From positions 50,463 through 114,462 of the forward strand of contig CBDFKV010000005.1 in NCBI GenBank assembly GCA_965249035.1: DNA of 64,000 nt, given 5' to 3'. Numbering within the stretch: the first letter of the stretch is position 1; each line of letters opens with the position of its first letter. Origin of the DNA: Candidatus Poriferihabitaceae bacterium (GTDB taxonomy: Bacteria > Pseudomonadota > Gammaproteobacteria > Arenicellales > Poriferihabitantaceae). The position numbers were made by a program, and so were the translations under genes. Shown one piece after another: positions 1 to 51,962 of this stretch. Below the pieces are notes generated by a model, which did no database searches, was not told the origin of the DNA, and saw only the letters and a program-made list of their open reading frames with translations.

Positions 1-1692
1 GATCGGGAGGGAGAAGTCATAGCGCGTGAAGTCTTGGACTTTTGCGCCTATCGTGGCTCGCTGCAACGCTTGTGGTTATCATCATTGGACGATGCATCTA
101 TACGCAAGGCGCTTGGAGCGTTGCGTGATCAGAGTAGCACTGAAGCGTTGTATTACGCTGGTCTAGGACGTGCCAGAAGTGATTGGCTGGTAGGTATGAA
201 TCTGACAAGAGCCTATACCTGTCTGGGCCGCGATGCAGGCTTTGACGGTGTACTGTCCGTCGGGCGCGTACAAACGCCGACGCTTGCGCTGGTGGTTCAG
301 CGTGATCTCCTGATCGAGAATTTCACTCCTAGCGACTACTACGTAGTTATTGCAGCGCTAGACCATTCAGGTGAGCGGTTTTCAGCAACATGGGTGCCTA
401 ATGCTGATGAACTAGCCACGATCTGTGATGATCAGCGCCGCTGTACCAGTCAGAAATCGGCGATGCAAGTGGCGCAGAATTTAGCTAACTCAACCGCTGT
501 GGTTACATCTTTTGATCGACGCAACAAGTCAAAATCTGCACCACTGCTTTTTTCTTTGTCAGCCCTGCAAAAAGCAGCCTCTTCCCGATGGGGCTACGGT
601 GCTGAACAGACATTGAAGATTGCTCAGGCATTGTACGAGGGCTATAAGGCGACCAGCTATCCGCGCAGTGATTGCCAATATCTGCCGTTAGAGCAGCTGG
701 ACGAAGCATCTGACGTGCGTGATGCGCTGATGACGGTTCACCGCAGCGACAAGGCGTTGACCAGCCATATTGAGCGCATGGATATGTCGCTCAAAAGCCG
801 CGCATGGAACAACGCTAAAATCACGGCTCACCACGGCATTATTCCGACCACGAATGATCGGGTAGACGTAGCAAGTATGAGTGAGCCTGAACGCAATATC
901 TATGATCTGATTGTTCGGCACTATCTCGTGCAGTTTTATCCACCCTACATCGCTGAATACACCGAGATAAAGCTGTCTGCCAATGGCGTTGATTTACTTG
1001 CAAAAGGCATCCGTCCGGTTTCGTCGGGTTGGAAGTCTGTGTTGACGGTTGACAAGAAAGAGGATGCGCCAGAGCAACATTTACCGACTATGCAAAGTGG
1101 CGACCAGGCCCAGGTGGAAGATGCGTCGGTAGAGTCCAAGAAAACCAAACCACCGGCTCGATTTACCGAGGGAACACTGATTGACGCGATGGCGAATGTC
1201 GCTCGTTATGTTGAAGATGCGCAAGCAAAAGCAATACTCAAGGAAAACGAGGGAATTGGTACTGAAGCTACCCGTGCGGGAATTATCGAAACGCTGAAAA
1301 GCCGTAAGTATGTGCAGCCCAAAGGCAAGCAACTGATTTCAACCACTACAGGTCGAGAACTGATACAGATGCTACCGAAAGAGCTGACTGATCCAGTGAT
1401 GACAGCACTTATGGAGCGATTACTGAGCAAGATCGCCGATGGTGATCTTGACCTGGACAATTACATGCGGCGACAAACGCAGTATGTCACCCGTTTGATT
1501 GAATCGGCCAAAGCAAATGCCGGTCAGATTCAAATTACACCAGGCAAAAAGAAAGTGAAAGCTGTACCAGTCAAGACAGACAAAGTTTGCCCTGATTGCG
1601 GCAAGCAACTACTGAAGCGTAAGGGCAAGAAGGGGTATTTTCTCGGTTGTTCAGGCTTTCCGGATTGTCGGCACATTGAATTTTTGAACTAG
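1..1692 (+). CDS. topB: DNA topoisomerase III (5' end outside window)
   Basis: Frame is open from base 1 (DREGEVIAREVLD, Toprim); SVGRVQTPTL, catalytic SYPRSDC, GIGTEATRAGIIETL, C-terminal Zn ribbon CPDCG...FLGCSGFPDC. Confidence 0.96.
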   Translation, partial: DREGEVIAREVLDFCAYRGSLQRLWLSSLDDASIRKALGALRDQSSTEALYYAGLGRARSDWLVGMNLTRAYTCLGRDAGFDGVLSVGRVQTPTLALVVQRDLLIENFTPSDYYVVIAALDHSGERFSATWVPNADELATICDDQRRCTSQKSAMQVAQNLANSTAVVTSFDRRNKSKSAPLLFSLSALQKAASSRWGYGAEQTLKIAQALYEGYKATSYPRSDCQYLPLEQLDEASDVRDALMTVHRSDKALTSHIERMDMSLKSRAWNNAKITAHHGIIPTTNDRVDVASMSEPERNIYDLIVRHYLVQFYPPYIAEYTEIKLSANGVDLLAKGIRPVSSGWKSVLTVDKKEDAPEQHLPTMQSGDQAQVEDASVESKKTKPPARFTEGTLIDAMANVARYVEDAQAKAILKENEGIGTEATRAGIIETLKSRKYVQPKGKQLISTTTGRELIQMLPKELTDPVMTALMERLLSKIADGDLDLDNYMRRQTQYVTRLIESAKANAGQIQITPGKKKVKAVPVKTDKVCPDCGKQLLKRKGKKGYFLGCSGFPDCRHIEFLN

Positions 1693-1700
1693 ATTATTTA

Positions 1701-1717
1701 TGGCCACAGTGTGGCCA
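1701..1717. promoter_or_regulatory. 17-bp palindrome TGGCCACA-G-TGTGGCCA, copy 1 (parS/operator-like)
   Basis: Perfect 8-1-8 dyad; identical at 3153 and 6440, variant at 5775. Confidence 0.7.
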
Positions 1718-1736
1718 CAAATCCACACTAAAAACT

Positions 1737-2120
1737 ATGAACGCAGCAAAACAACTTTTGATCGACCTGCAAACGCTGGATATTGAAGCCAGGCTGATAA
1801 CCTGCGCGAGTGTGGACTACCCTAAAAGTGTCGTTCCCACCTATACCTTTTCGTTGTCCCTTGAGCGCGCTGTTCATTTACACAGGATGATTGACGGGGA
1901 TACACAGCTTTTTAACTACTGGTATTTATCTGGCATTCAACATCCCGACAGGATCAGCTGGCACCTTGAAACCACGCACTTGTCGCGGTTTATCAAAGGA
2001 ATCATAGGAAAGCGTTCGCGCCCAGATTTTGACCTGATTTATCACATGGTGAGGCAAGCTAAGGAAGAATCGCTTGAAGACTTGCGAGCAGCTTTGGTAG
2101 CGCCTCTTTCAGTCCAGTGA
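1737..2120 (+). CDS. Hypothetical protein, possible distant paralog of the next two ORFs
   Basis: 127-aa ORF directly after topB; PTYTFSLS...LFNYWYL loosely parallels PYLGIYS...LNYHWYI. Confidence 0.6.
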   Translation: MNAAKQLLIDLQTLDIEARLITCASVDYPKSVVPTYTFSLSLERAVHLHRMIDGDTQLFNYWYLSGIQHPDRISWHLETTHLSRFIKGIIGKRSRPDFDLIYHMVRQAKEESLEDLRAALVAPLSVQ

Positions 2121-2314
2121 AAATCGAATACAGCAATACTGCCATGATTGTCAGACCTATGGCTTTCAGTAGCAAAATTTGTCGATATCGTTTAATACAT
2201 GGATACTTCGCTTTGCATATGCATTTTCTAGCCGTATTGCTAACTTCTCTTTTGCATACGCGGCAATTAACAACATGTTCTTTTTCAAAAATCATAGCCT
2301 ACTCCTGTTTATAG

Positions 2315-2689
2315 ATGTGTTTCCCAAAAAACCGGATGGAAAGACGTTTTAGCGCGCTCCGTGATGTCCTGGAATCGGCGGATGGAATCAAGGTCAAATG
2401 GGTTTTTATTGGCACACTTGATCTGAAAGGGCGGTTGTATTCTCAGCCTTATCTGGGCATTTATTCGTCAGCCCAGAAAGCACAACATATCGCCCGAACC
2501 ATTGCTGAAACAGACAAGCTCAACTATCACTGGTATATCACTGTTCAATGGAGTGACTGCTTACGCCCATACTACGCAATCAAGTTGAAACACGGGTTTT
2601 GTATCCTGGACGAAATTGCCACTCCGCGTGTCAAGCAAGTATGCCAGGACATTGAACAGATCACTGAATCGATACGCGCCAACGCATGA
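2315..2689 (+). CDS. Hypothetical protein, paralog of 2753..3139
   Basis: Shared DGIxxKW, PYLxxYxSA, KLxYxWxIxV, QDIExIxESxRA. Confidence 0.75.
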   Translation: MCFPKNRMERRFSALRDVLESADGIKVKWVFIGTLDLKGRLYSQPYLGIYSSAQKAQHIARTIAETDKLNYHWYITVQWSDCLRPYYAIKLKHGFCILDEIATPRVKQVCQDIEQITESIRANA

Positions 2690-2752
2690 CTATAGCAATT
2701 GCTGGCAATTACGGCCAGAGATTTATCTCCAGCAAGTGATCACGCAAACTAC

Positions 2753-3139
2753 ATGAGAAGAAGCATTGACCCAAAAATTCGAGTCCTGACCGATGCCTTG
2801 AATGATATCGACGGCATCAGTACCAAATGGTCTTGCAGCGGACATCCACCCCCTTTGGGCTGGGCTGGACTACTGTTACCAATGGTCGAACTGCCATACC
2901 TGAGTTTTTACGCGTCTGCCAAGCAGGGGCGGAAAATTGCGCAGATAATTGCCAAAACCCCGAAACTGAAATATCGATGGAACATCGAAGTGGATTTTTC
3001 GATCTGTCTTCATGCCAGATATACCATTCGACTGCCTGGCGGCGTTTGGCATGATGCTTTATTGTATCGCGCCTGGCCGATATGGCAAGATATCGAACGT
3101 ATCGCTGAATCTGTACGAGCATATCCCTGGAACGAATAG
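2753..3139 (+). CDS. Hypothetical protein with IDPKI..LN..GISTKWSCSGH motif (TYW3-N-like)
   Basis: Motif read from translation; ATG 2753 preferred to the TTG at 2699. Confidence 0.75.
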   Translation: MRRSIDPKIRVLTDALNDIDGISTKWSCSGHPPPLGWAGLLLPMVELPYLSFYASAKQGRKIAQIIAKTPKLKYRWNIEVDFSICLHARYTIRLPGGVWHDALLYRAWPIWQDIERIAESVRAYPWNE

Positions 3140-3152
3140 TTGTCCGAATCTA

Positions 3153-3169
3153 TGGCCACAGTGTGGCCA
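3153..3169. promoter_or_regulatory. 17-bp palindrome, copy 2
   Basis: TGGCCACAGTGTGGCCA. Confidence 0.7.
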
Positions 3170-3249
3170 TTAGAAAAGACCCATAGTACGTGTACGGCCT
3201 TGAAATTCTTTTTCTGCGGCCGTAATATGGCCGCGTTGAACAATTTACT

Positions 3250-3353
3250 GTGGACTGCCAGCGCCCCGAAGTTTCTGGCATAGAGCGATGAATACTGGAT
3301 TTATCCAGTACCGACCGAAGAAAACATCGTCATAGGGTAAAACCTACTCGGTC
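3250..3353 (+). ncRNA. 104-nt structured element, copy 1 (candidate cis-regulatory RNA)
   Basis: Duplicated at 6618-6721 with only two differences, which form one compensatory pair; stems TGCCAG/CTGGCA, CGATG/CATCG, TACTGGA/TCCAGTA, TAGG/CCTA, GACCGA/TCGGTC. Confidence 0.65.
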
Positions 3354-3369
3354 ATATTCAATACTTTTC

Positions 3370-3443
3370 AACCCTATCGGGGATGTACTCATCCCGTAGG
3401 GGTTAGTGCATCCCTTTTTTATTATTAAATCGGAGATGTACCA
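3370..3443 (+). promoter_or_regulatory. Repeated structured 5' leader, copy A
   Basis: AACCC..GGGATGTACTCATCCCGTAGGGGTTAGTGCATCCCTTTTTT..AAATCGGAGATGTACCA then ATG. Confidence 0.8.
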
Positions 3444-4199
3444 ATGAATAACTCAACTCAAAACGCAACCAACAAAACTTACGACGTTCACACGACTGGA
3501 TTCGGATACTTAAACCGTATTCGTGAGGTCACACCTTCACATGGTGGTAAGCCGTACTTATCTTGCGATATCACATTGCAGGAAGGCGTTGCAAAAGATG
3601 GCGATTTTTCTACGATCAAAAAGATTTACTTTCAAGCTAACGTAGTTGGCACGAAGGCAATCGAGGTGATGCGTGAGCATTTCACCAATGATCAAGGAAA
3701 AGTAGCTTCACCGGATGAGCCAGTAACCGCAGCTGTCCGCCTTGGCGGAATTGATGTGGATCAGTGGACTTATCAAAAAGGCGATAAAGCGGGTCAACCA
3801 GGCGTGACACTTAAAACGCGCTTGTTAAAGCTCACCTATCTCGCTATTGGTGGTAACGCTATCGATCTGGGCGAAGATGAAGATAATGCCGAGACAGCAC
3901 AGGAGCCTTCCGAGGAACCTACTGCCGAAGCACAGTCTGAACCTGAACTCTCGCAAATCGAGGGGGATACGCAGCCGGAATCTGAGTCGCAAGACGAAGA
4001 ACCCGAAGCGGTATCAATCGAAGATATGCAGGACGATAGCGGTAAACTGTGTGAAATCCATCTCTCTAAAGACGATCCAGAGTTTGACGCAAAGCGCGTC
4101 ATGGTAAAACAACTGGGCTATCGTTGGAACAGTGACAGTCAGTCCTGGCTACCACCTGTCCAACAAGCGAATGAGCAGGCAGCGCAAGCAGCTGGTTAA
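3444..4199 (+). CDS. DUF3577 (STY4534-like) ICE protein with acidic linker and extra C-terminal domain
   Basis: YDVHTTGFGYLNRIREV..YLSCDI, WTYQKGDKAGQPGVTLKTRLLK are typical of DUF3577; position after topB. Confidence 0.85.
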   Translation: MNNSTQNATNKTYDVHTTGFGYLNRIREVTPSHGGKPYLSCDITLQEGVAKDGDFSTIKKIYFQANVVGTKAIEVMREHFTNDQGKVASPDEPVTAAVRLGGIDVDQWTYQKGDKAGQPGVTLKTRLLKLTYLAIGGNAIDLGEDEDNAETAQEPSEEPTAEAQSEPELSQIEGDTQPESESQDEEPEAVSIEDMQDDSGKLCEIHLSKDDPEFDAKRVMVKQLGYRWNSDSQSWLPPVQQANEQAAQAAG

Positions 4200-4212
4200 T
4201 TCGTTAGTTGAT

Positions 4213-4238
4213 ACATCACAGCCTTCGGGCTGTGATGT
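4213..4238 (+). terminator. 11-bp perfect hairpin with C(UUCG)G tetraloop after DUF3577
   Basis: ACATCACAGCC-TTCG-GGCTGTGATGT; U-tract is weak, so it may be a stability or processing hairpin. Confidence 0.55.
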
Positions 4239-4278
4239 TGATATTAGAGTAAAATCATCATTTTTTGAGGACATACCA

Positions 4279-4461
4279 ATGTCTACTGATAAACCCTTAC
4301 CTGCTGGCGATTCAATTTCAGAACTCAGCACCGAGCAGTTGGAGAATACGCTTGATTCCGTTCGTTTTGACATCGTTAAGCACAAGCTAGATCGTGATTC
4401 GATTCTGGACATTTGGGAAGCAGGTCTGAAACAGCATTTGCTGAAGGTTAGCAAAAGCTAA
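4279..4461 (+). CDS. Small hypothetical protein (60 aa)
   Basis: GAGG RBS before ATG 4279 (MSTDKPL...). Confidence 0.65.
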   Translation: MSTDKPLPAGDSISELSTEQLENTLDSVRFDIVKHKLDRDSILDIWEAGLKQHLLKVSKS

Positions 4462-4481
4462 GTAGCTACAAATACAATTCA

Positions 4482-4553
4482 AACCCACACGGGATGCACT
4501 CATCCCATTGGGGTGGTACGTCCTTTTTAAATTTTTAAATCGGAGATGTACCA
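4482..4553 (+). promoter_or_regulatory. Repeated structured 5' leader, copy B
   Basis: AACCC..GGGATGCACTCATCCCATTGGGGTGGTACGTCCTTTTT..AAATCGGAGATGTACCA then ATG. Confidence 0.8.
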
Positions 4554-4826
4554 ATGAATTTTCTAAAATCTAAACGCACGATCGCAAAACTGGAAGCTTA
4601 CAGTGACTTCGCCAATTCATACGGCGTATGGCTTTTTATGATCTTTTTGTCAGCATCAATGTTGGCACTAATGATATATGGAGCCTATACAAAGTGGGAT
4701 TCACCGGAGTTCACCACCTTTCATGTTTATACGCTGGCACTTTTAATTATCGTGATACTCGCTTGCCTATTTACAGCTCTAGTCGAGCTAGTAAGCGAGC
4801 TATACAGAAACCAGGCTATCCACTAG
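4554..4826 (+). CDS. Small two-TM membrane protein
   Basis: Two hydrophobic stretches; starts exactly at the end of leader B. Confidence 0.75.
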   Translation: MNFLKSKRTIAKLEAYSDFANSYGVWLFMIFLSASMLALMIYGAYTKWDSPEFTTFHVYTLALLIIVILACLFTALVELVSELYRNQAIH

Positions 4827-4842
4827 CGGAGCCTTCAATTCA

Positions 4843-4913
4843 AACCTTATTGGGATGCATTCATCCCATTGGGGTGGTACGTCCCTTTTTAATTTTTAAA
4901 TCGGAGATGTACT
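4843..4913 (+). promoter_or_regulatory. Repeated structured 5' leader, copy C
   Basis: AACC..GGGATGCATTCATCCCATTGGGGTGGTACGTCCCTTTTT..AAATCGGAGATGTACT then ATG. Confidence 0.8.
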
Positions 4914-5141
4914 ATGAACACTAAAATCGAAGAAATTGGACTCTATCTGGTCGGAGCGTTTGTAACTCTGACAATAGCAGCCATAGTCGCGTTTGGATGG
5001 CTTCTTGCTTCCATTCTTGGCAGTGCAGTAGCATCAATGTACTCAGCAATGGTTGATGCGATGCTTCGTTCGCCTATTTGCACTCTTTTCTTTTCACCGT
5101 GGCTTAAAGCAAACATGCTTGCTCAATTGAAGCAGTCATAG
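4914..5141 (+). CDS. Small membrane protein (75 aa)
   Basis: Long hydrophobic segment; starts at the end of leader C. Confidence 0.7.
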   Translation: MNTKIEEIGLYLVGAFVTLTIAAIVAFGWLLASILGSAVASMYSAMVDAMLRSPICTLFFSPWLKANMLAQLKQS

Positions 5142-5157
5142 CTAATCAAGCTGCGTT

Positions 5158-5228
5158 AACCCAGACGGGAATCACCATTCCCGTTTACGGGCTTGGTATT
5201 CCCGTCGTAATCATTATTGGAGGCGACA
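5158..5228 (+). promoter_or_regulatory. Repeated structured 5' leader, divergent copy D
   Basis: AACCC-AGACGGGAAT-CACC-ATTCCCGT..TGGT-ATTCCCGTC: same layout with compensatory sequence changes. Confidence 0.65.
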
Positions 5229-5411
5229 ATGGAAAAGCTAGCCTGGCAAGAGTTTCTGACTTTTTGCGATACTGCAATAACGAATGAATTACTCGAAAAA
5301 CGAGGACGAATCCTTGATCTGATTCCGAAGTTGCAAGACGAAGATGTTATTCGTGATGCGCACAGGATGGTGAAAACTATCGATCAGGAATTGATGGGGC
5401 GAGTTCTTTAG
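5229..5411 (+). CDS. Small helical hypothetical protein (60 aa)
   Basis: GGAGG RBS before ATG 5229 (MEKLAWQEF...). Confidence 0.65.
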   Translation: MEKLAWQEFLTFCDTAITNELLEKRGRILDLIPKLQDEDVIRDAHRMVKTIDQELMGRVL

Positions 5412-5710
5412 TCTTTTCCGTGTCGGCGCATGATTGCGTCGGCACGGTCAGGATTACCTTTGGCAATTTCAATCAACGCCTGACGCTCAGGATTAGAGCA
5501 GTCACCGTCTGATGCGATTGCGGCCAGGAAATCATTAATAAACGGACGTGATTTTCCCCAGGCATGATCAAACTGCTGTTCGGTTTTGATACTGTCAATG
5601 TGGATGCCAACTTTAGCAAAATGCTGGGCGTATTTAGCTCGGTCTTTGCGTGTAAATACCAGTGTTCCATTACTGGATACCAGGCATCCGGTGTGATGTT
5701 TCGTATTCAT
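5408..5710 (-). CDS. Hypothetical protein (100 aa), the only minus-strand gene in the small-gene array
   Basis: ATG start, protein-like composition, convergent overlap with 5229..5411. Confidence 0.6.
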   Translation of the reverse strand: MNTKHHTGCLVSSNGTLVFTRKDRAKYAQHFAKVGIHIDSIKTEQQFDHAWGKSRPFINDFLAAIASDGDCSNPERQALIEIAKGNPDRADAIMRRHGKD

Positions 5711-5774
5711 TCGTCAATCATATCACAAGGATGGTGAAGTCAATCAGGTGCCGATCCAATCTTTCTTAATCTTG

Positions 5775-5791
5775 TGGCCAGACTCTGGCCA
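5775..5791. promoter_or_regulatory. 17-bp palindrome, symmetric variant TGGCCAGA-C-TCTGGCCA
   Basis: Both arms changed together (CACA/TGTG to CAGA/TCTG), preserving the dyad. Confidence 0.65.
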
Positions 5792-5804
5792 GCAAATTCA
5801 ATTT

Positions 5805-5871
5805 AACCTTTACGGGATGCATTCACACCCCGTTGGGTTGGTGCATTCCTTTTTCTATGGAGGAAATTCAA
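5805..5871 (+). promoter_or_regulatory. Repeated structured 5' leader, copy E
   Basis: AACC..ACGGGATGCATTCACACCCCGTTGGGTTGGTGCATTCCTTTTT..GGAGG then ATG. Confidence 0.75.
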
Positions 5872-5964
5872 ATGGCAGAAATGCTAATCGCGCTACTGGT
5901 ACTCGTTTTAATTGGCGGTTACCTTGCTTCATGTTGTTGGTTAGCCAGCAACTATCACAGATGA
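5872..5964 (+). CDS. 30-aa single-TM peptide MAEMLIALLVLVLIGGYLASCCWLASNYHR (not in the ORF track)
   Basis: Hand translation; GGAGG RBS at 5859-5863; follows leader E. Confidence 0.6.
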   Translation: MAEMLIALLVLVLIGGYLASCCWLASNYHR

Positions 5965-5998
5965 ATCAGGACTGGATAATTTAGTCCAAAATGTTGTT

Positions 5999-6076
5999 AA
6001 CCCTGCCGGGATGTACTCATCCCGTAGGGGTTAGTGCATCCCTTTTTTATTTTTATTTTAAATCGGAGATGTACCA
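5999..6076 (+). promoter_or_regulatory. Repeated structured 5' leader, copy F (near-identical to A)
   Basis: AACCC..GGGATGTACTCATCCCGTAGGGGTTAGTGCATCCCTTTTTT..AAATCGGAGATGTACCA then ATG. Confidence 0.8.
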
Positions 6077-6424
6077 ATGAATAACTTAACTCAATCCGCC
6101 GCACAGCATGATGCAGAGCATTTCAATGTAGGCGACATACTCGAAGCCCCCTGGGGCTTTAGTGTGTCAGGCGTTGATTTTTATCAAGTTGTACGCATTA
6201 CTGCTTCAGGCAAATCAGTAGCTCTCAAAAAACTTGCCAAACGACATAAAGGCGTTGGGCAGCTGAATGGGAATTCAGAGCCTATACAACACAAGTTTGT
6301 TGGTGAAGCATTGATGCGCCGTGTTAAGCCTTACGATGCTACCAGCCCACAAGTCAGAATTGACGGATTTACAATCGCAACACGATGGACGGGTGTTCCG
6401 TTCTTTGAAAGCCATGATCAATAA
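6077..6424 (+). CDS. Hypothetical mobile-element protein (VGDIL..WG....VDFYQVV motif)
   Basis: Motif recalled from phage/plasmid hypothetical proteins; starts at the end of leader F. Confidence 0.75.
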   Translation: MNNLTQSAAQHDAEHFNVGDILEAPWGFSVSGVDFYQVVRITASGKSVALKKLAKRHKGVGQLNGNSEPIQHKFVGEALMRRVKPYDATSPQVRIDGFTIATRWTGVPFFESHDQ

Positions 6425-6439
6425 TGATGCTAAATAACG

Positions 6440-6456
6440 TGGCCACAGTGTGGCCA
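6440..6456. promoter_or_regulatory. 17-bp palindrome, copy 4
   Basis: TGGCCACAGTGTGGCCA. Confidence 0.7.
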
Positions 6457-6550
6457 TTAATTTTTCTTCGGTGATAGCGCAATAGTGCGCTGTCACCAAG
6501 GGGATTTCTGTGCGGATAGCATGGGAATTTATAAATTCGACTGTCCAGGT

Positions 6551-6592
6551 ATTCATTAGCTTTCTTGCTCTACCACAAGAAAGCTAATGAAT
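6551..6592. repeat. Perfect 17-bp inverted repeat with 8-nt loop
   Basis: ATTCATTAGCTTTCTTG-ctctacca-CAAGAAAGCTAATGAAT. Confidence 0.85.
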
Positions 6593-6617
6593 GCTAAGAT
6601 CAGCACATCGATATACG

Positions 6618-6721
6618 GTGGACTGCCAGCGCCCCGAAGTTTCTGGCATAGAGCGATGAATACCGGATTTATCCGGTACCGACCGAAGAAAACATCGTCA
6701 TAGGGTAAAACCTACTCGGTC
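6618..6721 (+). ncRNA. 104-nt structured element, copy 2
   Basis: Direct repeat of 3250-3353; C6664/G6675 replaces T3296/A3307. Confidence 0.65.
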
Positions 6722-7245
6722 TATCGCACGATACGGAGTGGTCACCAAACAGGCTGCGAACCTATCGTGTTGTAACCTATAGAACTCCATGATGATTATG
6801 GAGCGTCTATATTTTCAAGCCTTACACCGGCCGCAATCCCCGTGATTGTGGTCGGTGTCTTGGGAAAAGATAACCTTCACAAGCTGGGACTGATGGTGTC
6901 TCGGTTTGTGAAGGCTATCTTAGCCGTCAACTCACCAGTCAAGGCTGCTGGAAAATAGCCTGCCCTTAGTGCGGTTCTGCCCGTGCCACCACATGATTAA
7001 ACAGATCATAGCCCCGTCTATCGGGGCTATATCTTCATTTACCATCCGCAATAGCCTTTCTTCCTGGTCACACTTATCTGGTTGGCCACGTCACACTTTA
7101 TGCGCTCGATGCGTCACATCGCCGTACCACAAAAATATACCGCTTGTCAATAGATAACCCAATATTGCCCATATAGGGTTTTCTGTTCCTTTTCCCGTGT
7201 TTGTGTGAATAATGGTGCAGCATCTAAATAGCGCAACTTATTTAT

Positions 7246-7848
7246 ATGCTTCATCTTCCCGTTGATTGTCTCCTCCTTCATTGTGGTAAGGCTTGGATCG
7301 CTTCGTGCCGTAGTTTTCTCAGTTACATTTTCTCCGGCGGCGCGAATGCGATCTTTTTTTCTTTATCGCTAACATTACCCATTAATACCGCGTTCGCGGC
7401 TGATACACAGGCTGTGGGGCGCTATATCGACGTATCGGTTAAAGCCGAGCATGAACAGCTTTGGCCTCTGAATGAAGTCGTTAGTCCAGCCTTTGGTAGC
7501 TGTCCGAGCATTGCATGTGCAATAACCAGCGCGATCAGTTTAGTCGGCTACACACTCTATCCAGGTCAAAAGCACGTATCAGTGCTGAATACTCTGAACA
7601 AGCCGATTCCGACAAACCATTTACGCCTGAACAATTTAACGATTATTGAGGCGATCCACACCCTGATCGGGCCAGCCTATCAAATATTGGTTGATCCCTA
7701 TGATCGCTTAATCTCTTTTGAGCTAATTCAGTCGCCTGTGGTTATTACCACACAAAGCACAACCGCTACGCACTCCGAGGCGCAGACGATTCGACTCAAA
7801 ACGACCAAACCCAATTACCCACCGGATATCGACGGAGGTCGCCGCTAA
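7246..7848 (+). CDS. pilL: PilL-like ICE protein (true start may be downstream)
   Basis: GRYIDVSVKAEHEQLWPLNEVV and LIGPAYQILVDPYDRLISF match PFGI-1-class PilL; first gene of the transfer operon. Confidence 0.75.
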   Translation: MLHLPVDCLLLHCGKAWIASCRSFLSYIFSGGANAIFFSLSLTLPINTAFAADTQAVGRYIDVSVKAEHEQLWPLNEVVSPAFGSCPSIACAITSAISLVGYTLYPGQKHVSVLNTLNKPIPTNHLRLNNLTIIEAIHTLIGPAYQILVDPYDRLISFELIQSPVVITTQSTTATHSEAQTIRLKTTKPNYPPDIDGGRR

Positions 7849-10044: not shown

Positions 10045-12306
10045 ATGACAGCCAAGTATCAAATCGAAGCACTGTTAAGACCTGCGATTGAAGGCACGTC
10101 GGCGGTGTTTGCGCTGTTGATGGCCTTAACCATCTTCCTGGCGCATAGCAATCTGCTGATGCCAACACCAGTCGCCTTGTGGTCATCATCATTTTTTATT
10201 GCCTATGCGCTGTGGCGAGCCTGGCAATGGTATCGGATCAAGCGCTATCACCGGCTGCTGTTAAGACAGCCACGCTATGCCCTGAAGCAAAACAAAATCC
10301 CCGTGTCCAGGAAAGCGCTGTTTCTGGGCAAGGGTTTTCGATGGTCGCAAAAGCATACACAGCGACTGCGAGATTGTCTGTTGCCGGAGAATGAAGCGTA
10401 TCTCAGGGAAGGAACCTGGTATCGCAGAGCGCGAAACCTGGAACTTCGCTTTGAGGGTACAACACTAGAAAAGCTCTTATCGAGCCAATGGGTTTTGAAT
10501 CCAGTACGTCCGAAGCCAGAAGTTGGTGGACGCCCTGAAATTCATGGGGTGGGCATGTATGAGGGTGAACAGAAAGTCTATTTGCCGTTGTTTGAGCGAG
10601 TCGGTCATACGCTGGTGTTGGGTACTACGCGAGTCGGCAAAACTCGCCTGGCAGAAGTGATGGCCACTCAGGATATCGCTCGCGGCGAAACCGTGATTTT
10701 CTTTGATCCCAAAGGCGATGCTGATTTAGTTAAGTCGCTGTATGCCGCTGCGCGTGAGGCTGGGCGCCTGGATAACTTCTATATCTTTCACCTGGCGTAT
10801 CCAGAGGTGTCGGCCCGATATAACCCGCTTGGCTCGTATTCGCGGATTACGGAACCGGCGACCCGTATTGCCAACGGCTTGCCAAATGAGGGCAATTCGG
10901 CAGCGTTCAAGGAATTCGGCTGGCGGTTCACAAACATCATTACCCGGGCGTTGCATTTCCTGGGCAAACGTCCTTCGTATGAGGCGATTGCCAAGTACAT
11001 CGATAACATCGACGTGCTGCTGATCGAATACGGAATTGCCTGGCTGAAAGAGGTAGACCTCGAAAACTACGAATCGGGTATTGCCCGAATCAAGTACGGC
11101 TTGACCGGCAACAAAGATGACCCCAACAAACCTAACGTACCGGCACTTGTCCCTACCGAGCGTGGTCGAGATATGGATGCAGTCTGCACTGCGCGATATC
11201 TCAAGCAGTACATGCAGGAAACTGATCAACACGAACCTGTCGCGGCTGGATTGCTATCGGCGTTCAAATACGACAAGGCGTATTTCGACAAAATCGTTTC
11301 TTCACTTGGCCCGTTCCTGGAAAAATTGACTGCTGGCAAGGTCAGTGAATTACTAAGCCCAGACTATAACGATCTGACTGATGAGCGCCCGATATTCGAT
11401 TGGCGCGATGTGATCCGCACCAACGGTATTGTTTACGTTGGCCTGGCTGCGTTGACGGATGTCACCGTCGCATCTGCGGTCGGCAATGCCATGTTTTCCG
11501 ACTTGACCGCCGTTGCGGGTGATTTGTATGCGCATGGCACGGGATCGGACGCTATCGGTGACGCTGGCTATGCCAAGGTATCGATACATGCCGACGAATT
11601 CAATGAATTGATCGGTGATGAATTTGTGCCGATGTTGAATAAGGCAGGTGGTGCCGGTTATCAGGTAACGGCTTACACCCAAACCTGGGCAGATATCGAG
11701 GCGCGTATTGGTAGTCGCGCCAAGGCTGAACAGGTTGGCGGTAACTTCAACACGCTGGCGATGTTGCGGGTTTTACGAACCGACACCGCTGAAATGTTGA
11801 CGGATAAATTGCCAAAAGTGCAAGTTAATCAAATCACCACTTTGTCCGCAGCCAGTCATTCCGACACACCCGAGGACGGTACACCGTTTTCATCCAGGGT
11901 TGAAGATCGTATTACGACTGCTGATGTGCCGATGATCGATCCGTCTGATTTAACTCGTTTGCCCAAAGGCCAGGCGTTCATCTTGAAAGAAGGTGGGCAA
12001 CTGTTCAAGGTGCGTTTGCCATTGGCAGTTGCCGACGATGAAGGCATACCCGACCAGGTACGTGGGCTGGTCGAGAATATGCGCAAGGATAGCGATACCC
12101 GCAATTCCGATACCTGGTATCGGGATGAGTGGTGGCAAAGCACCGTTGGCGGTGCGGTCAATACCCGTAATTTCCGTGATCTGGTTTTTGGCAACAAACA
12201 AGACGAAGCCCAAAATCCAGAGGATTTGGTGAGTCAGGATGATGCTGATCCGTCAAATAATGTTGACAGCGCTCAGGAGCCTGATATGGAGGCTTTCAAT
12301 GGTTGA
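10045..12306 (+). CDS. traD: Type IV coupling protein TraD (GI-type)
   Basis: IEALLRP, Walker A GTTRVGKT, FDPKGD, HADEFNEL, LPKGQAF. Confidence 0.96.
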   Translation: MTAKYQIEALLRPAIEGTSAVFALLMALTIFLAHSNLLMPTPVALWSSSFFIAYALWRAWQWYRIKRYHRLLLRQPRYALKQNKIPVSRKALFLGKGFRWSQKHTQRLRDCLLPENEAYLREGTWYRRARNLELRFEGTTLEKLLSSQWVLNPVRPKPEVGGRPEIHGVGMYEGEQKVYLPLFERVGHTLVLGTTRVGKTRLAEVMATQDIARGETVIFFDPKGDADLVKSLYAAAREAGRLDNFYIFHLAYPEVSARYNPLGSYSRITEPATRIANGLPNEGNSAAFKEFGWRFTNIITRALHFLGKRPSYEAIAKYIDNIDVLLIEYGIAWLKEVDLENYESGIARIKYGLTGNKDDPNKPNVPALVPTERGRDMDAVCTARYLKQYMQETDQHEPVAAGLLSAFKYDKAYFDKIVSSLGPFLEKLTAGKVSELLSPDYNDLTDERPIFDWRDVIRTNGIVYVGLAALTDVTVASAVGNAMFSDLTAVAGDLYAHGTGSDAIGDAGYAKVSIHADEFNELIGDEFVPMLNKAGGAGYQVTAYTQTWADIEARIGSRAKAEQVGGNFNTLAMLRVLRTDTAEMLTDKLPKVQVNQITTLSAASHSDTPEDGTPFSSRVEDRITTADVPMIDPSDLTRLPKGQAFILKEGGQLFKVRLPLAVADDEGIPDQVRGLVENMRKDSDTRNSDTWYRDEWWQSTVGGAVNTRNFRDLVFGNKQDEAQNPEDLVSQDDADPSNNVDSAQEPDMEAFNG

Positions 12307-44982: not shown

Positions 44983-46965
44983 ATGCAATGTCCATTTGTG
45001 CTGGATTGGAATGTGTTAAACCACTTAGGAGTGGGACTGTATACCAGTACCCCAGCGGTGTTGACTGAGCTAATTGCAAATGCCTACGATGCGGACGCAC
45101 CAGAAGTAAAAATTGATTTTGATATTGAGGGAGGAGAAATACGAATACTGGATAACGGTCATGGAATGGATGTTAATGCCCTAAAAGATCAATTCTTCAC
45201 TGTCGGTTACCAGCGTCGACTACATTCTGAGCTTGAGACAACACCAGGTGGACGCTATCCAATGGGGCGAAAGGGGCTAGGAAAACTGGCGATCTTTTCT
45301 CTAGCTAGTGAGTTCGCCATTTATTCCAAAATGGACGGAGGTGAGGAGGAAGCTACCAGGGTTGTGCGGGAAGATCTTGAAGAAAAAATCAGAATAAATG
45401 AACCATACGAGACTGAGGATTTAGGGGCAACTAACGAATTGGGAGAGCAGGAAAAAGGAACGCTATTGGTTCTAACCCAGCTCACAAACAGCATTACAGA
45501 AGCAACCTTAAGACACCTACGAGGTAGGATTGTAAGACGGTTTACAGTTTTGTCGGACAAGTTCCAAGTAATAATTGATGGTACTGCCTTGGATCGAAGC
45601 GACAAGGAATTTGAAAAAGACATTCAATGTTTGTGGTATTTGGATGATACAGCTCAACAACATTTTCTTGATCTAGGGACTGTAGGTAAATATGGCCCGG
45701 ATGAAAAAAACTGTATGGAAGAAATACCTAACGAAATTCCGTGTGGTGACTCTCCTCTTCGGATTAATGGGTACATAGGTACTGTTAAGGAACCGAAGCA
45801 ATTGAAGCGATACCAAGAAAATATAAACCAAGTTTCCATTTTTGCTAATGGCCGGGTTTTCGAAGAAAATGTGCTCTCACGAATTGGTGGAAGTAAACAC
45901 GTGTATCAATATATTTATGGGGAGATTGAGGCCGATTTTCTTGATAGAGATAATACTGATCGAGCGGTTACTAACAGAGAAGGAATTAAGAAGGAAGACC
46001 AAATTGTCAGCCTCCTAGTAGGCTATATCAAGGAAAAGATACTCCCGAAAATAGATGTGCAGTGGGACGATTGGCGAGCTAAGCTGGGATATGGCGAGAG
46101 CGCTGAGGAGATCAATCCCACCATTGCAAGTTGGATAGATACTCTGGAAGATGCTAGGGATAAAGAATTAGCAGATACCTTGATGTCGAAAATTTCTTCA
46201 GCTCGTTTTTCCGCAGATGAGCAAGAAAATTTAAGTCAACAAAAACACCTGTATAAATCCGCCGTGCTTGGCTTTGAAAGACTACGCAACAGGAATCAAC
46301 TGTCAAGATTGGACCAAATCCCAGATGTGGTCAGCCCGGAATTCCAATCTATTTTTCGACTTCACAATGATTTAGAAGAATCGTTTTATTACGATATCAC
46401 TACTGGCCGACTAAGAATTATCGAAAGACTTAAAGAAATACATAAAACAGAGCAATTAGAAAAAATAGCTGAAATTCATCTTTTTGATAATCTTTGGTTG
46501 TTAGACCCTACCTGGGGGAGAATAACTGGTAGTGAACAAATGGAACAAACATTATCTGATGTGGTTCGTAATGTAGAGCCAGACGATGACAAATCTGCTC
46601 GGTTGGATATTGCTTACAGAACAAGTTCGGGCCGCCATATTATAGTCGAACTAAAGCGCCCTGGTCTTCCTTATAATCCCGCTGATTTAATAGACCAAGG
46701 GGGAAGATATAAAGAGGCTGTAAAAGAATGGTACAAGCAACATCCCGATGCGTATGACAGAACACCCCCACCTATAGATGTATATTTCCTAGTAGAAAAA
46801 GATTTGTTTACAAACGAAACTCAGCAGCAATTACTTGATGTATTGGGATATGTTCTAACCTATGCCGGGCTAATTGAAAATGCGTTTAAAGCGTACGGCG
46901 AATACCTCAGTTCTGCAACTAGCTTGGGCAGAATTAATACAATTATTGATGAGATAGGTGATTGA
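44983..46965 (+). CDS. GHKL (MORC/MutL-like) ATPase fused to a PD-(D/E)xK nuclease; putative restriction endonuclease
   Basis: ELIANAYDADA, DNGHGM, GRKGLGKLA; C-terminal LWLLDP and RLDI...IIVELKRP. Confidence 0.87.
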   Translation: MQCPFVLDWNVLNHLGVGLYTSTPAVLTELIANAYDADAPEVKIDFDIEGGEIRILDNGHGMDVNALKDQFFTVGYQRRLHSELETTPGGRYPMGRKGLGKLAIFSLASEFAIYSKMDGGEEEATRVVREDLEEKIRINEPYETEDLGATNELGEQEKGTLLVLTQLTNSITEATLRHLRGRIVRRFTVLSDKFQVIIDGTALDRSDKEFEKDIQCLWYLDDTAQQHFLDLGTVGKYGPDEKNCMEEIPNEIPCGDSPLRINGYIGTVKEPKQLKRYQENINQVSIFANGRVFEENVLSRIGGSKHVYQYIYGEIEADFLDRDNTDRAVTNREGIKKEDQIVSLLVGYIKEKILPKIDVQWDDWRAKLGYGESAEEINPTIASWIDTLEDARDKELADTLMSKISSARFSADEQENLSQQKHLYKSAVLGFERLRNRNQLSRLDQIPDVVSPEFQSIFRLHNDLEESFYYDITTGRLRIIERLKEIHKTEQLEKIAEIHLFDNLWLLDPTWGRITGSEQMEQTLSDVVRNVEPDDDKSARLDIAYRTSSGRHIIVELKRPGLPYNPADLIDQGGRYKEAVKEWYKQHPDAYDRTPPPIDVYFLVEKDLFTNETQQQLLDVLGYVLTYAGLIENAFKAYGEYLSSATSLGRINTIIDEIGD

Positions 46966-49394: not shown

Positions 49395-51962
49395 ATGGCG
49401 CTATCAAATAAAAAATGCCCAAAAGAATCCCTCGGTACATTAGAGGGCTCTCTTCAAGCCCCTAACAAGTTTGATTACTTAGGCATGTCAGCACTTGGCC
49501 AAGCAGAGCTTTTAAGAATTAGAGCAAATAGTGGGCTTGATAAAAAAAGGAAAGCCGCACTAGGACAGTTTTTTACTCCCGGCGCGACCAGCTTATTTAT
49601 GGCCTCCTTGTTCAAGAGGATCAACGGCAAGGTGACATTGTTAGACCCTGGATGTGGCCCCTGCACGTTGACCGCTGCTTTTGTTGATGAGGCCGTGAAG
49701 AGACAATCTTGTAGTTCGATTATGGTAACTGCATACGATGTTGAAAGGCAGTTTGCCCCCGATGTTAAAGAAGCTCTTAGAGTTTGTAAAAAAGCAGCTC
49801 ACTCCGCAAATATTAAATTCGATGCAAATGTTTATCTTAAAGATTTCATCCTAGAGTATGTAGAGGTGTCGGGCTCTCAGAGTGGGTACTCTCATGTAAT
49901 TATGAACCCACCATATAAGAAAATTAACGGCACAAGTAATCATCGGAAAGCCTTACGAGATGTTGGGATTGAGGCGGTCAATCTGTACTCGGGGTTTGTG
50001 GCGCTGGCAATTCAAAAATTAGCTCCACAGGGTGAGCTTGTGGCCATAATCCCACGTTCGTTTTGTAATGGCCCATATTATCAGTCTTTTCGACAACTCC
50101 TTTTTGCTGAAACGGCCATTCGTCAAATCCATATTTTCGATGCCCGAAACCAAGCTTTTTCTGAAGATAAAGTATTACAAGAAAATATTATCCTTCATCT
50201 AGTGAAGGGCGATATACAAAAGGACATCACCATTACATCAAGCCCGGCTGCAGATTTCCATGTCGATGAGGAAACCGGAACGGTTACTGCTAGTGCACTG
50301 ACCACGCGCACAGTTCCATTTAGCTCTGTGGTCTACCCAAACGATACGGAACAGTTTATCCATATAGTCGCGAACAACCGAGACCAAGTTGTTGTCAATC
50401 AGATGGGGTCTTTTACTAACAGCTTAGATGACCTGGGCATATCGGTATCTACTGGCCCAGTAGTAGATTTTCGGATGAGGGAAGATTTGCGACAAGACAT
50501 CGAGGCACATGCGGTTCCGTTGCTTTACCCCGTCCATCTGAACAGAAAAGTATCTTGGCCGAAGCAGTCCAACAAACCAAACGCCATCATGGTTTCTGAA
50601 CGAACTAAGCCGTGGCTTTGGAGGAACGATGGATATTTTGTGGTGGTTCGTCGGTTTAGCTCAAAGGAAGAAAAACGTCGAATCGTCGCTACCCTGTACG
50701 ACAGCAAATTACCAGGGGAGCTCATTGGTTTTGAGAACAAGCTCAATGTCTTTCATCAAAACAAAAAAGGCATGGATCGAAAACTAGCAGTAGGGCTATA
50801 CATATATCTAAATTCTACATTGCTCGACAAATATTACCGCCTCTTTGGTGGGCACACGCAAGTCAATGTCACGGATTTAAAAAATGTTCGTTTTCCAAGC
50901 GCTGCCTCTTTGAGGAAAATTGGCGCTCGAGGCAACTACGAAGACTTAACTCAGGAACAAATTGATAATTTAATAAAAAAGGAAACCATCACTATGACAG
51001 GAAAAAATTTTAGCGACCCTATTAGTGCTCAAAAAATATTGGACCAGGCTCTTCAATTACTGAGGGCCCTAGGGTTACCTCGTGCCCAACAAAATGAGCG
51101 GTCCGCACTAACATTATTGGCACTATTAAATCTTTCTCCTAAAGGAACTTGGCAGGAGATCGAAAGGCCTATGATTGGCGTTACGCCAATAATGAATTGG
51201 TGTCGAGATAACTATGGAAAAAACTATGCCCCCAATACCCGCGAGACGTTTCGCCGGCAGACACTGCATCAATTTGTTGATGGGGGCCTTTGTTTATATA
51301 ACCCAGACTTACCCAGCCGACCTGTAAATAGTCCTAAAGCGTGTTATCAATTAGCTCCTGAGTTATTTGATACGCTAAAAACGTATGAAACTTCCGCTTG
51401 GGAAAAAAGCTTAGCGGCATGGCTCAAAAACAGAAAAACATTAGCTGCGCAGTACGCTAATGTGCGTAAAATGGAAATGATCCCATTGACCTTAGATGAT
51501 GGCATAGAAATAAGCCTGAGCCCCGGCGCTCATAGCCAACTTATCCACGATATTGTTACTGAATTTGGTCCTCGGTTTTCACCCGGATCTCAGGTTATTT
51601 ACTTGGGCGATACTGAGGCCAAAGAAGGTTTCATTCGAAAGGACAGGCTCTCAGAATTTGGGGTTATTGTCGATCGAAAGGGTAAAATGCCTGATGTCGT
51701 TCTATATGATTCAAGTCGAGATTGGTTGCTGCTGATTGAATCAGTTACAAGTCATGGGCCGGTTGATGGGAAAAGGCATGGTGAATTGGCTACTCTTTTT
51801 CAGGGCGCTAAGCCTGGTTTAGTATATGTAACTGCTTTTCCGGACAAGAAAATAATGGGGGAATATTTGTCAGATATTTCTTGGGAAACGGAAGTTTGGG
51901 TGGCAGATGCCCCAACCCATTTGATCCATTTCAACGGAGATCGCTTTTTAGGCCCTCACTAA
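49395..51962 (+). CDS. Fused N6-adenine methyltransferase plus BsuBI/PstI-family restriction endonuclease
   Basis: GQFFTP, LLDPGCG, NPPY; C-terminal YAPNTRETFRRQTLHQF, KMPDVV, ESVTSHGPVD, ISWETEVW. Confidence 0.92.
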   Translation: MALSNKKCPKESLGTLEGSLQAPNKFDYLGMSALGQAELLRIRANSGLDKKRKAALGQFFTPGATSLFMASLFKRINGKVTLLDPGCGPCTLTAAFVDEAVKRQSCSSIMVTAYDVERQFAPDVKEALRVCKKAAHSANIKFDANVYLKDFILEYVEVSGSQSGYSHVIMNPPYKKINGTSNHRKALRDVGIEAVNLYSGFVALAIQKLAPQGELVAIIPRSFCNGPYYQSFRQLLFAETAIRQIHIFDARNQAFSEDKVLQENIILHLVKGDIQKDITITSSPAADFHVDEETGTVTASALTTRTVPFSSVVYPNDTEQFIHIVANNRDQVVVNQMGSFTNSLDDLGISVSTGPVVDFRMREDLRQDIEAHAVPLLYPVHLNRKVSWPKQSNKPNAIMVSERTKPWLWRNDGYFVVVRRFSSKEEKRRIVATLYDSKLPGELIGFENKLNVFHQNKKGMDRKLAVGLYIYLNSTLLDKYYRLFGGHTQVNVTDLKNVRFPSAASLRKIGARGNYEDLTQEQIDNLIKKETITMTGKNFSDPISAQKILDQALQLLRALGLPRAQQNERSALTLLALLNLSPKGTWQEIERPMIGVTPIMNWCRDNYGKNYAPNTRETFRRQTLHQFVDGGLCLYNPDLPSRPVNSPKACYQLAPELFDTLKTYETSAWEKSLAAWLKNRKTLAAQYANVRKMEMIPLTLDDGIEISLSPGAHSQLIHDIVTEFGPRFSPGSQVIYLGDTEAKEGFIRKDRLSEFGVIVDRKGKMPDVVLYDSSRDWLLLIESVTSHGPVDGKRHGELATLFQGAKPGLVYVTAFPDKKIMGEYLSDISWETEVWVADAPTHLIHFNGDRFLGPH

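Follow-up and report, generated by a model that had tools for sequence, protein, structure and literature searches.

Conjugative elements of the mating-pair formation type G (MPF_G) class, the relatives of pKLC102, PAPI-1, ICEclc and SPI-7, are vehicles for genes of virulence, resistance and catabolism. Only two RNAs, radC and STAXI, have been catalogued in them, and both have been without a known function since 2010; no functional study of either was found in the literature. The radC RNA motif is described in the part of Weinberg et al. (2010; PMC2864571) devoted to it, and a passage of Cury et al. (PMC5587801) attributes 80% of the RNAs in MPF_G integrative and conjugative elements to these two families. 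The subject here is a 64,000-nt stretch of contig CBDFKV010000005.1 from a Candidatus Poriferihabitaceae bacterium (hereafter the window; source genome G000). The window belongs to an MPF_G conjugative element of PFGI-1/pKLC102 type and carries two copies of a 104-nt direct repeat on its forward strand, copy 1 at 3250–3353 and copy 2 at 6618–6721. From its covariation and its placement, this 104-nt element is predicted to be a pseudoknotted RNA that leads mRNAs of the conjugative element and had not been catalogued before.

A scan of the window against Rfam 15 (4227 covariance models), as the first-pass annotation had recommended, gave no match at the gathering thresholds; at E values up to 10, chance-level matches fell elsewhere in 3100–7300 and none on the element. 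The radC family (RF01754) gave no match at E up to 10 in 3100–7300 or in 3190–3450 (261 nt around copy 1), and none in any of the five genomes that carry the element (gathering score 40 bits). The positive control, pKLC102, returned three radC matches of 82–97 bits. These three copies lie within 4 kb, each before a gene of the equivalent module, and the order in pKLC102 is a TTGACA promoter, radC, a hairpin here termed leader A, and a DUF3577/STY4534 gene. In the window, copy 1 ends 90 nt before the DUF3577 gene with the same leader A hairpin between them, as the first-pass annotation had placed it; radC ends 117 nt (genome G148) and 104 nt (genome G421) before DUF3577. Neither radC nor the 104-nt element is found in 17 of 19 other DUF3577 genomes. 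The two RNAs thus occupy the same slot, in the 5′ untranslated regions (UTRs) of accessory and DNA-processing genes of proteobacterial conjugative elements, with several copies per element, and both have multi-hairpin folds of similar size (149 nt for radC, about 105 nt for the element). On position and predicted fold, the element is a positional analogue of radC with a different architecture, not a member of the radC family.

The 104-nt repeat and its predicted fold

Direct comparison of the two copies, both 104 nt long, bears out the near-identity first reported for them: the sole differences are T3296/C6664 and A3307/G6675, and beyond either edge the identity breaks off. A repeat search lists the same pair as 111 nt at 96% identity (family D3). 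The two variable bases face each other in the hairpin TACTGGA-TTTA-TCCAGTA (3293–3310), and because they pair together in helix P2 the change is compensatory. All five helices drawn in the first-pass annotation were found at their positions. Copy 1 (type A) is matched by the covariance model at 3240–3358 on the forward strand, with 149.1 bits. It comprises a U-rich tract with UGUGG (3249–3253), P1 (3256–3261/3275–3280), P2 (3293–3299/3304–3310), P3 (3313–3318/3348–3353), P3a (3333–3336/3343–3346) and a crossing, pseudoknot-forming helix (3286–3290/3325–3329), and its minimum-free-energy (MFE) fold recovers P1, P2, P3 and P3a. Copy 2 (type B; 6608–6726, forward strand, 146.8 bits) has the helices of copy 1 at +3368, with C6664–G6675 in P2. 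Single-sequence folding is mildly better than that of shuffled sequences (z-scores of −1.46 and −2.04 with RNA parameters and of −1.65 and −2.44 with DNA parameters for the two copies), and since these scores are mild the reality of the fold cannot be judged from one sequence; the case therefore rests on relatives.

Eleven copies, with pairwise identities of 44–94%, could be aligned. In this alignment 94.3% of the cells are standard pairs, and 18 of the 29 pairs are altered on both sides: four of six in P1, four of seven in P2, three of six in P3, four of four in P3a and three of six in the crossing helix. When the partners were slid by 1–3 columns as a control, just 0–3 pairs were double-changed. 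None of 500 shuffles reached the observed pairing values. These figures are inflated, and the shuffle count overstates significance, since the nested helices guided the alignment and the copies are related to one another. The crossing helix was absent from the model that produced the alignment. For this helix a duplex of 4–6 bp can form in all 13 copies between the junction that follows P1 and the 5′ half of the internal loop in P3, in seven sequence versions that are all complementary, and the own-partner energy sum of −45.8 kcal/mol is matched by 5 of 5040 partner permutations. As both crossing helices covary, neither is a chance alternative; both are under selection, either as an H-type pseudoknot into which the hairpins P2 and P3a are inserted or as two successive states. 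The covariation thus favours the pseudoknot or mutually exclusive folds that had been proposed from the window.

MFE folds of single copies contain P1 in 13 of 13 cases and the other nested helices in nearly all, the exception being the type B copy of genome G010. P2 is missing from that copy and from two copies in genome G233, which makes it the least essential part of the fold. The three copies of genome G033 (A, B and C) are strongly diverged, yet every helix is kept by compensatory change; homologs that fail to preserve the helices would have spoken against the first-pass annotation, and the relatives preserve them. Thirteen unpaired bases are invariant in the 11 copies, including UGG, the CCC of the P1 loop and the G-AA of the P3 internal loop; the sequence of the P1 loop is not conserved in G233. 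Loop variants include one UUCG and one GNRA tetraloop. A MAFFT alignment of 13 copies was set aside, as copies without P2 were misaligned, and no third model was made. Taken across relatives, the covariation identifies the 104-nt repeat as a conserved structured element, in agreement with the functional, structured nucleic acid suggested at first pass.

The divergence among copies also bears on a quite different explanation, in which the direct repeats are a recombination substrate that lets the intervening gene array be lost or exchanged and the fold is incidental. Direct repeats of 104 nt with two differences would suit such a role. From the A copy to the B copy, genomes differ in gene content and in distance (about 3.4 kb in the window, 2.0 kb in genome G027, 2.7 kb for G033 and 2.4 kb for G010), and some copies within a genome look homogenised (A and B in G000, A and C in G010). 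The diverged G033 copies, however, retain every helix, which indicates selection on the fold and not on identity, and in G000 the third copy heads an operon of its own on a separate contig, so that we give this explanation hardly any weight. As an event, the 3.4-kb deletion predicted at first pass is plausible in principle, but no 3250/6618 deletion joint was seen in the contigs of four sequencing runs from one sample, contigs being unable to reveal rare forms. In these runs the contigs break at the repeat, and the 104-nt unitig has about twice the depth of its flanks.

Fourteen copies are known, in five genomes, each of them in a PFGI-1/pKLC102-type (MPF_G) conjugative element with two to three copies per element. 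The covariance model was made from the first six sequences and then run on whole genomes and loci; it yielded 11 significant copies in four genomes (three in G000, two in G027, three in G033 and three in G010). The third copy of G000, on contig C3, is 89% identical. Genome G233, which belongs to a different family (loci L047/L077), contributes two further accepted copies and one divergent variant. The two were accepted by hand parse and synteny: both have the U-rich tract with CUGUGG, P1, a 6-bp pseudoknot, P3 and P3a, and precede the same leader hairpin and syntenic genes. The third variant retains the 5′ motif and P1 alone.

The element is rare and known to date from these five genomes only. 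The model matched 4 of 69 genomes of the family and 4 of 151 genomes of the order, and gave no accepted match in 20 other DUF3577-bearing genomes, where two weak hits (E 0.04 and 0.14) were judged to be chance. A blastn search of a plasmid collection with the element gave no match, nor did one pattern scan of metagenomes; a protein scan of metagenomes gave one locus, without a copy, and a single-protein DUF3577 scan for relatives confirmed none. Of the 13 stretches returned by a pattern scan of genome contigs, 12 were rejected as chance matches in GC-rich genomes (model scores of at most 16 bits), and the remaining one (L020) is the same sequence as the type B copy of G010 and was counted once. 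A scan of genome contigs with a DUF3577 alignment gave seven loci, of which L072, L074, L075 and L076 have no copy, L071 repeats G010 and L077 contains L047; in L073, the opposite strand has two short stretches resembling the element, each a UGUGG with a hairpin, which were not accepted as copies. DUF3577 itself was found in 23 of 400 genomes in a class-wide tally, which takes in G201 and G099, two genomes on which no other result rests.

Strand, promoters and position of the copies

The pairs are strand-specific: 13 cells are G-U and one is A-C, and this excess places the fold on the strand that is sense for the genes downstream. A sigma-70-like site whose −10 box ends 8–27 nt before UGUGG precedes 9 of the 14 copies, as against 131 of 5000 random points in the window. 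Upstream of copy 1 this is the promoter-like TTGAAA-17-TAATAT at 3200–3228 on the forward strand, on which two scans agree, and the type A promoter (TTGNAA-17-TAWTAT) is called in all four genomes, the other three sites being L065 8707–8735, L066 12075–12047 and L067 8849–8877. Copy 2 is preceded by an extended −10 promoter-like site, TGcTAAGAT, at 6592–6600 on the forward strand, found with a custom scan, as the standard −35/−10 scan gives no score to extended −10 sites. In G027, G033 and G010 the B copies are preceded by TGtTAAGAT or TGtTATTAT, and the extended −10 is thus present in four of four genomes. We infer that the element is transcribed from these promoters directly upstream; a look-up of RNA sequencing runs gave none that contains the stretch. 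The predicted transcripts have 2–18 unpaired nucleotides ahead of the domain. All 13 well-parsed copies lie in a 5′ UTR, in the orientation of the following gene and between 78 and about 520 nt ahead of it. The extra copies in G033 and G010 are placed where transcription must restart after an antisense gene.

Strand-specific G-U pairs, upstream promoters and constant, co-oriented 5′ UTR placement together favour an RNA, and the element is very probably a cis-acting domain of mRNA leaders. Two observations count against this: five of the 14 copies have no qualifying promoter by the criteria used, and all three G233 copies fall below covariance-model significance (12–16 bits). The first-pass annotation had left the choice between an RNA and a single-stranded DNA signal. 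The latter might be a site on the lagging or transferred strand at which primase or the primosome enters (ssi), or a single-strand promoter of the Frpo kind, active upon entry into a recipient. Frpo and ssi, which belong to the leading regions of plasmids, are likewise repeated structured elements in the DNA-processing or establishment region of conjugative elements, and the element, with its two or three copies on one strand only a few kb from such a region (ssb/topB/DUF3577), fits this description. DNA also tolerates G-T wobbles, the DNA-parameter z-scores are those given above, and a similar question of RNA versus single-stranded DNA was raised for STAXI by its discoverers, in the passage of PMC2864571 on that motif. 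Against this stands the structured strand, which is mRNA-sense. A Frpo-type promoter must fold on the template strand, which is the strand transferred; the 104-nt element folds on the sense strand, after conserved promoters of the ordinary duplex type. The copies are moreover restricted to 5′ UTRs, for which an ssi would give no reason, and the loop variants show the tetraloops UUCG and GNRA once each. The element is therefore most likely an mRNA leader domain, as judged from these features, and the RNA half of the earlier alternative is the one that stood; a DNA signal is very unlikely, with some slight chance left for a priming signal on the sense strand.

If the domain is an mRNA leader, it could be a passive stabiliser or folding aid that protects the mRNA from 5′-end-dependent decay or leader misfolding and has no specific partner. 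The presence of a domain at the 5′ end of every unit would be explained, as would the interchangeability of unrelated folds (radC and others) in the slot. The invariant unpaired bases and the conserved UGUGG, however, argue for specific recognition, and a pseudoknot maintained by covariation exceeds the needs of a stabiliser. RNase E 5′-end sensing would not be blocked by a domain that follows 2–18 unpaired nucleotides, as in the predicted transcripts. A passive role is accordingly considered unlikely.

Downstream leaders and genomic context

Leader A (3369–3443, forward strand; repeat families D1, D2 and D4) is a terminator-like hairpin with a U-run, whose 3′ strand is complementary to the Shine-Dalgarno region. 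It follows the type A, type C and C3 copies of the element within 15–60 nt. Further leader A copies at 4475–4551, 4836–4912, 5804–5860 and 5997–6076 precede four more genes that have no 104-nt domain, and terminator-like calls at leader A fall at 3398–3415, 4510–4524, 4871–4885 and 6026–6043. The order within leader A is ACCC..GGGGA..UCCCC..GGG, the anti-Shine-Dalgarno UCUCC with the U-run, GGAGA and the start codon. It is found ahead of many accessory genes in the window, in pKLC102 and in Shewanella and Aliivibrio plasmids, and outside the window it lies at L078 6925–7000, L079 6935–7005 and L080 6930–6998; it has no Rfam match and a far wider spread than the 104-nt element.

Type B copies are instead followed by 380–520 nt without a conserved open reading frame (ORF), about 520 nt in the window, which agrees with the ORF-free run of hairpins described at first pass. 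This long leader (6727–7245, forward strand; inverted repeat I7) was defined by a four-genome alignment and a consensus fold. It contains, all on the forward strand, a covarying hairpin with an invariant CACCAAACA loop (6727–6769), a long hairpin (6867–6921), an invariant block (6922–6987) and a terminator-like hairpin from the terminator scan (7008–7030). The 66-nt block is invariant in the four genomes, in which the flanking proteins are just ~50–80% identical. By eye, it contains TGG-N9-TGC, with a spacing like that of a sigma-54 −24/−12 promoter; candidate roles for the block are a second promoter, a protein site and a further RNA domain. As the A, C and C3 copies and the B copies precede different leaders, the 104-nt domain is a common head placed on leaders that otherwise differ.

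The unit headed by copy 1 begins with the DUF3577 (STY4534-type) gene at 3444–4199 on the forward strand (Pfam PF12101, E 2.4e-23; STY4534 is a plasmid annotation name). The first gene after the long leader of copy 2 is a PilL2-like gene at 7246–7848 on the forward strand (NCBIfam TIGR03748, E 1.3e-13, below the cut-off), which opens the MPF_G type IV secretion operon. Other genes are topoisomerase III (34–1692), the coupling protein (10045–12306), and a TIGR03759 protein (8087) and the traC_PFL_4706 ATPase (18067), both matched above cut-off. The C3 copy heads an operon of DUF2958, DUF3275, a DUF6094 methyltransferase and an SNF2 helicase. Transposase genes lie directly upstream of it (L068 9745–10941 and 12346–13728), and this operon may sit in a rearranged or second element.

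Two further observations concern the window at large. The palindrome TGGCCA-N5-TGGCCA stands at four transcription-unit ends (1700–1716, 3152–3168, 5774–5790 and 6439–6455) and also after the C copy of G033; it may serve as a terminator that lacks a U-run or as an operator for a dimeric regulator. The cargo of the element includes a BbrUII/HgiDII-type restriction enzyme and an Alw26I-type methyltransferase-like gene (44983–46965 and 49395–51962), and a large SNF2-type helicase gene lies at 58406–61132.

Possible mode of action and comparison with known RNAs

In the mechanism proposed here, a pseudoknotted RNA would be transcribed as the first ~105–120 nt of several mRNAs of the MPF_G element, with every copy behind a promoter of its own and at the head of a separate unit. 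For copy 1 this unit is the array of small genes that starts with DUF3577, for copy 2 the pilL2/type IV secretion operon with its long leader, and for the C3 copy the DUF2958–DUF3275–methyltransferase–helicase operon. Folded at the nascent 5′ end, the domain would act in cis as a shared "regulon tag", recognised in trans by RNA polymerase or by a protein of the element or host, and recognition would license expression through the hairpins that follow, whether terminator-like or hiding the ribosome-binding site (RBS). The most specific form of the proposal is put-like processive antitermination, and the element would be functionally equivalent to radC. Both the cis action and the mechanism as a whole are what we infer from the arrangement of the copies. 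Since the element would stand at the start of the mRNA, in the slot where relatives carry radC, it probably helps to switch the genes of the conjugative element on. The constant head on different leaders, the invariant unpaired bases and the interchangeability with radC suggest a tag read by a common partner, a model that we hold tentatively, as slightly more easily wrong than right.

Antitermination is the most concrete proposal on account of precedents in other mobile elements and of the terminator-like sites in 1600–7400, which number 16 against 4.9 ± 1.9 expected and lie mostly on the sense strand downstream of the copies. Several findings pull the other way. Terminator-like sites are not enriched in three relatives (4 against 2.4 ± 1.7, 4 against 3.4 ± 1.8 and 6 against 3.0 ± 1.9 expected), and some leader A copies have no U-run, which weakens antitermination as a general role and makes control of translation or stability through a bound protein about equally likely. 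The genome encodes the housekeeping NusG only, with no NusG/RfaH paralogue, and no candidate protein partner was identified. Antitermination specifically is thus a doubtful reading. Two candidate mechanisms were rejected. An element-borne NusG/RfaH-like factor reading UGUGG as an ops-like signal was discarded, as the only NusG in the genome is the housekeeping one; pairing of the P1 loop with the downstream leader showed no covariation, its own-partner sum of −44.9 being worse than the permutation mean of −48.1, with 4576 of 5040 permutations as good.

The same leaders bear on the riboswitch-like role that had been among the options named at first pass. The 105-nt domain would be an aptamer for a metabolite or second messenger, and leader A or the type B leader its expression platform. 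A compact pseudoknotted domain with invariant unpaired bases, placed in a 5′ UTR before a hairpin able to hide the RBS or to terminate, has the outward form of such a device. Yet leader A occurs at four further window sites without the domain and the domain occurs without leader A in type B copies, so that the two modules are independent; P2 is dispensable (G010 type B copy, G233), the P1 loop varies in G233, and an unrelated fold, radC, fills the same slot. The downstream genes, with functions in DNA processing, secretion and methylation, suggest no ligand either. A riboswitch is therefore improbable, with nothing pointing specifically to a metabolite, and nothing points specifically to the ribozyme-like option that had also been raised.

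Returning to the tag and its partner, a bolder version would make the element a new class of self-sufficient RNA device, riding RNA polymerase or the first ribosome through hairpin-blocked genes and being one of several interchangeable heads (radC, STAXI and at least one Shewanella/Aliivibrio type) before the same RBS-hiding hairpin. This version is unlikely. If it were true, it would explain the orphan radC and STAXI RNAs and would provide a common post-initiation switch for the genes with which MPF_G elements transfer and establish themselves. As the radC slot, which follows the promoters of operons for DNA processing, accessory functions and secretion, can be filled by an unrelated and strongly covarying fold, what the slot does seems to count for more than which RNA family occupies it. 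With ~105 nt, five helices and a dispensable P2, the element is a small, defined object with which the function of the slot can be tested.

Among catalogued RNAs, radC remains the closest counterpart, and the element is probably its functional analogue, by analogy of slot and gene neighbourhood. The folds differ: radC has three consecutive hairpins and a 3′ hairpin, in a helix order unlike that of the element, and its pseudoknot seems, by eye in one pKLC102 copy, to join a loop (GAUC) to a 3′ single strand, whereas in the element the junction pairs with the internal loop of P3. STAXI (RF01728) resembles the element in being based on a pseudoknot and in adjoining the ssb, topoisomerase and anti-restriction genes of conjugative elements, as stated in the STAXI passage of PMC2864571, but it is a tandem repeat of a small pseudoknot unit, a structure that the element copies do not have. 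No STAXI match was obtained in the window or in any of the five carrier genomes (threshold 40.5 bits), in searches run without a STAXI positive control. STAXI RNA was detected by RT-PCR in vesicle preparations, according to a passage of PMC12370729. Aliivibrio and Shewanella plasmids have another apparent head domain before leader A and DUF3577 (L079 6770–6870, L080 6760–6850), consisting of a hairpin, then AAGCACACGG and then a possible partner GTGTCGCG, with no Rfam match; it may be a further family for the same slot.

Precedents for the antitermination form of the proposal come from other mobile elements. A put-type RNA stands in cis between a promoter and the terminators that it overcomes, once per operon; it binds RNA polymerase and gives terminator resistance without protein factors. 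The put RNA of phage HK022 is present in two copies, one per early operon, and has two stem-loops and no pseudoknot. The conAn RNA of pLS20 (in the part of PMC8191782 that treats it) and the RNA of Tn916 (likewise in PMC11658703) are antitermination RNAs of Gram-positive conjugative elements. The proposed likeness to put, conAn and Tn916 is that of cis-acting RNAs placed early in a long mobile-element operon, past which RNA polymerase reads through terminators. None of the three has a sequence or fold relationship to the element, and conAn differs further in needing a protein partner encoded alongside it, none having been identified for the element. Should read-through control prove to be its function, the 104-nt element would give proteobacterial conjugative elements their first known RNA of this kind.

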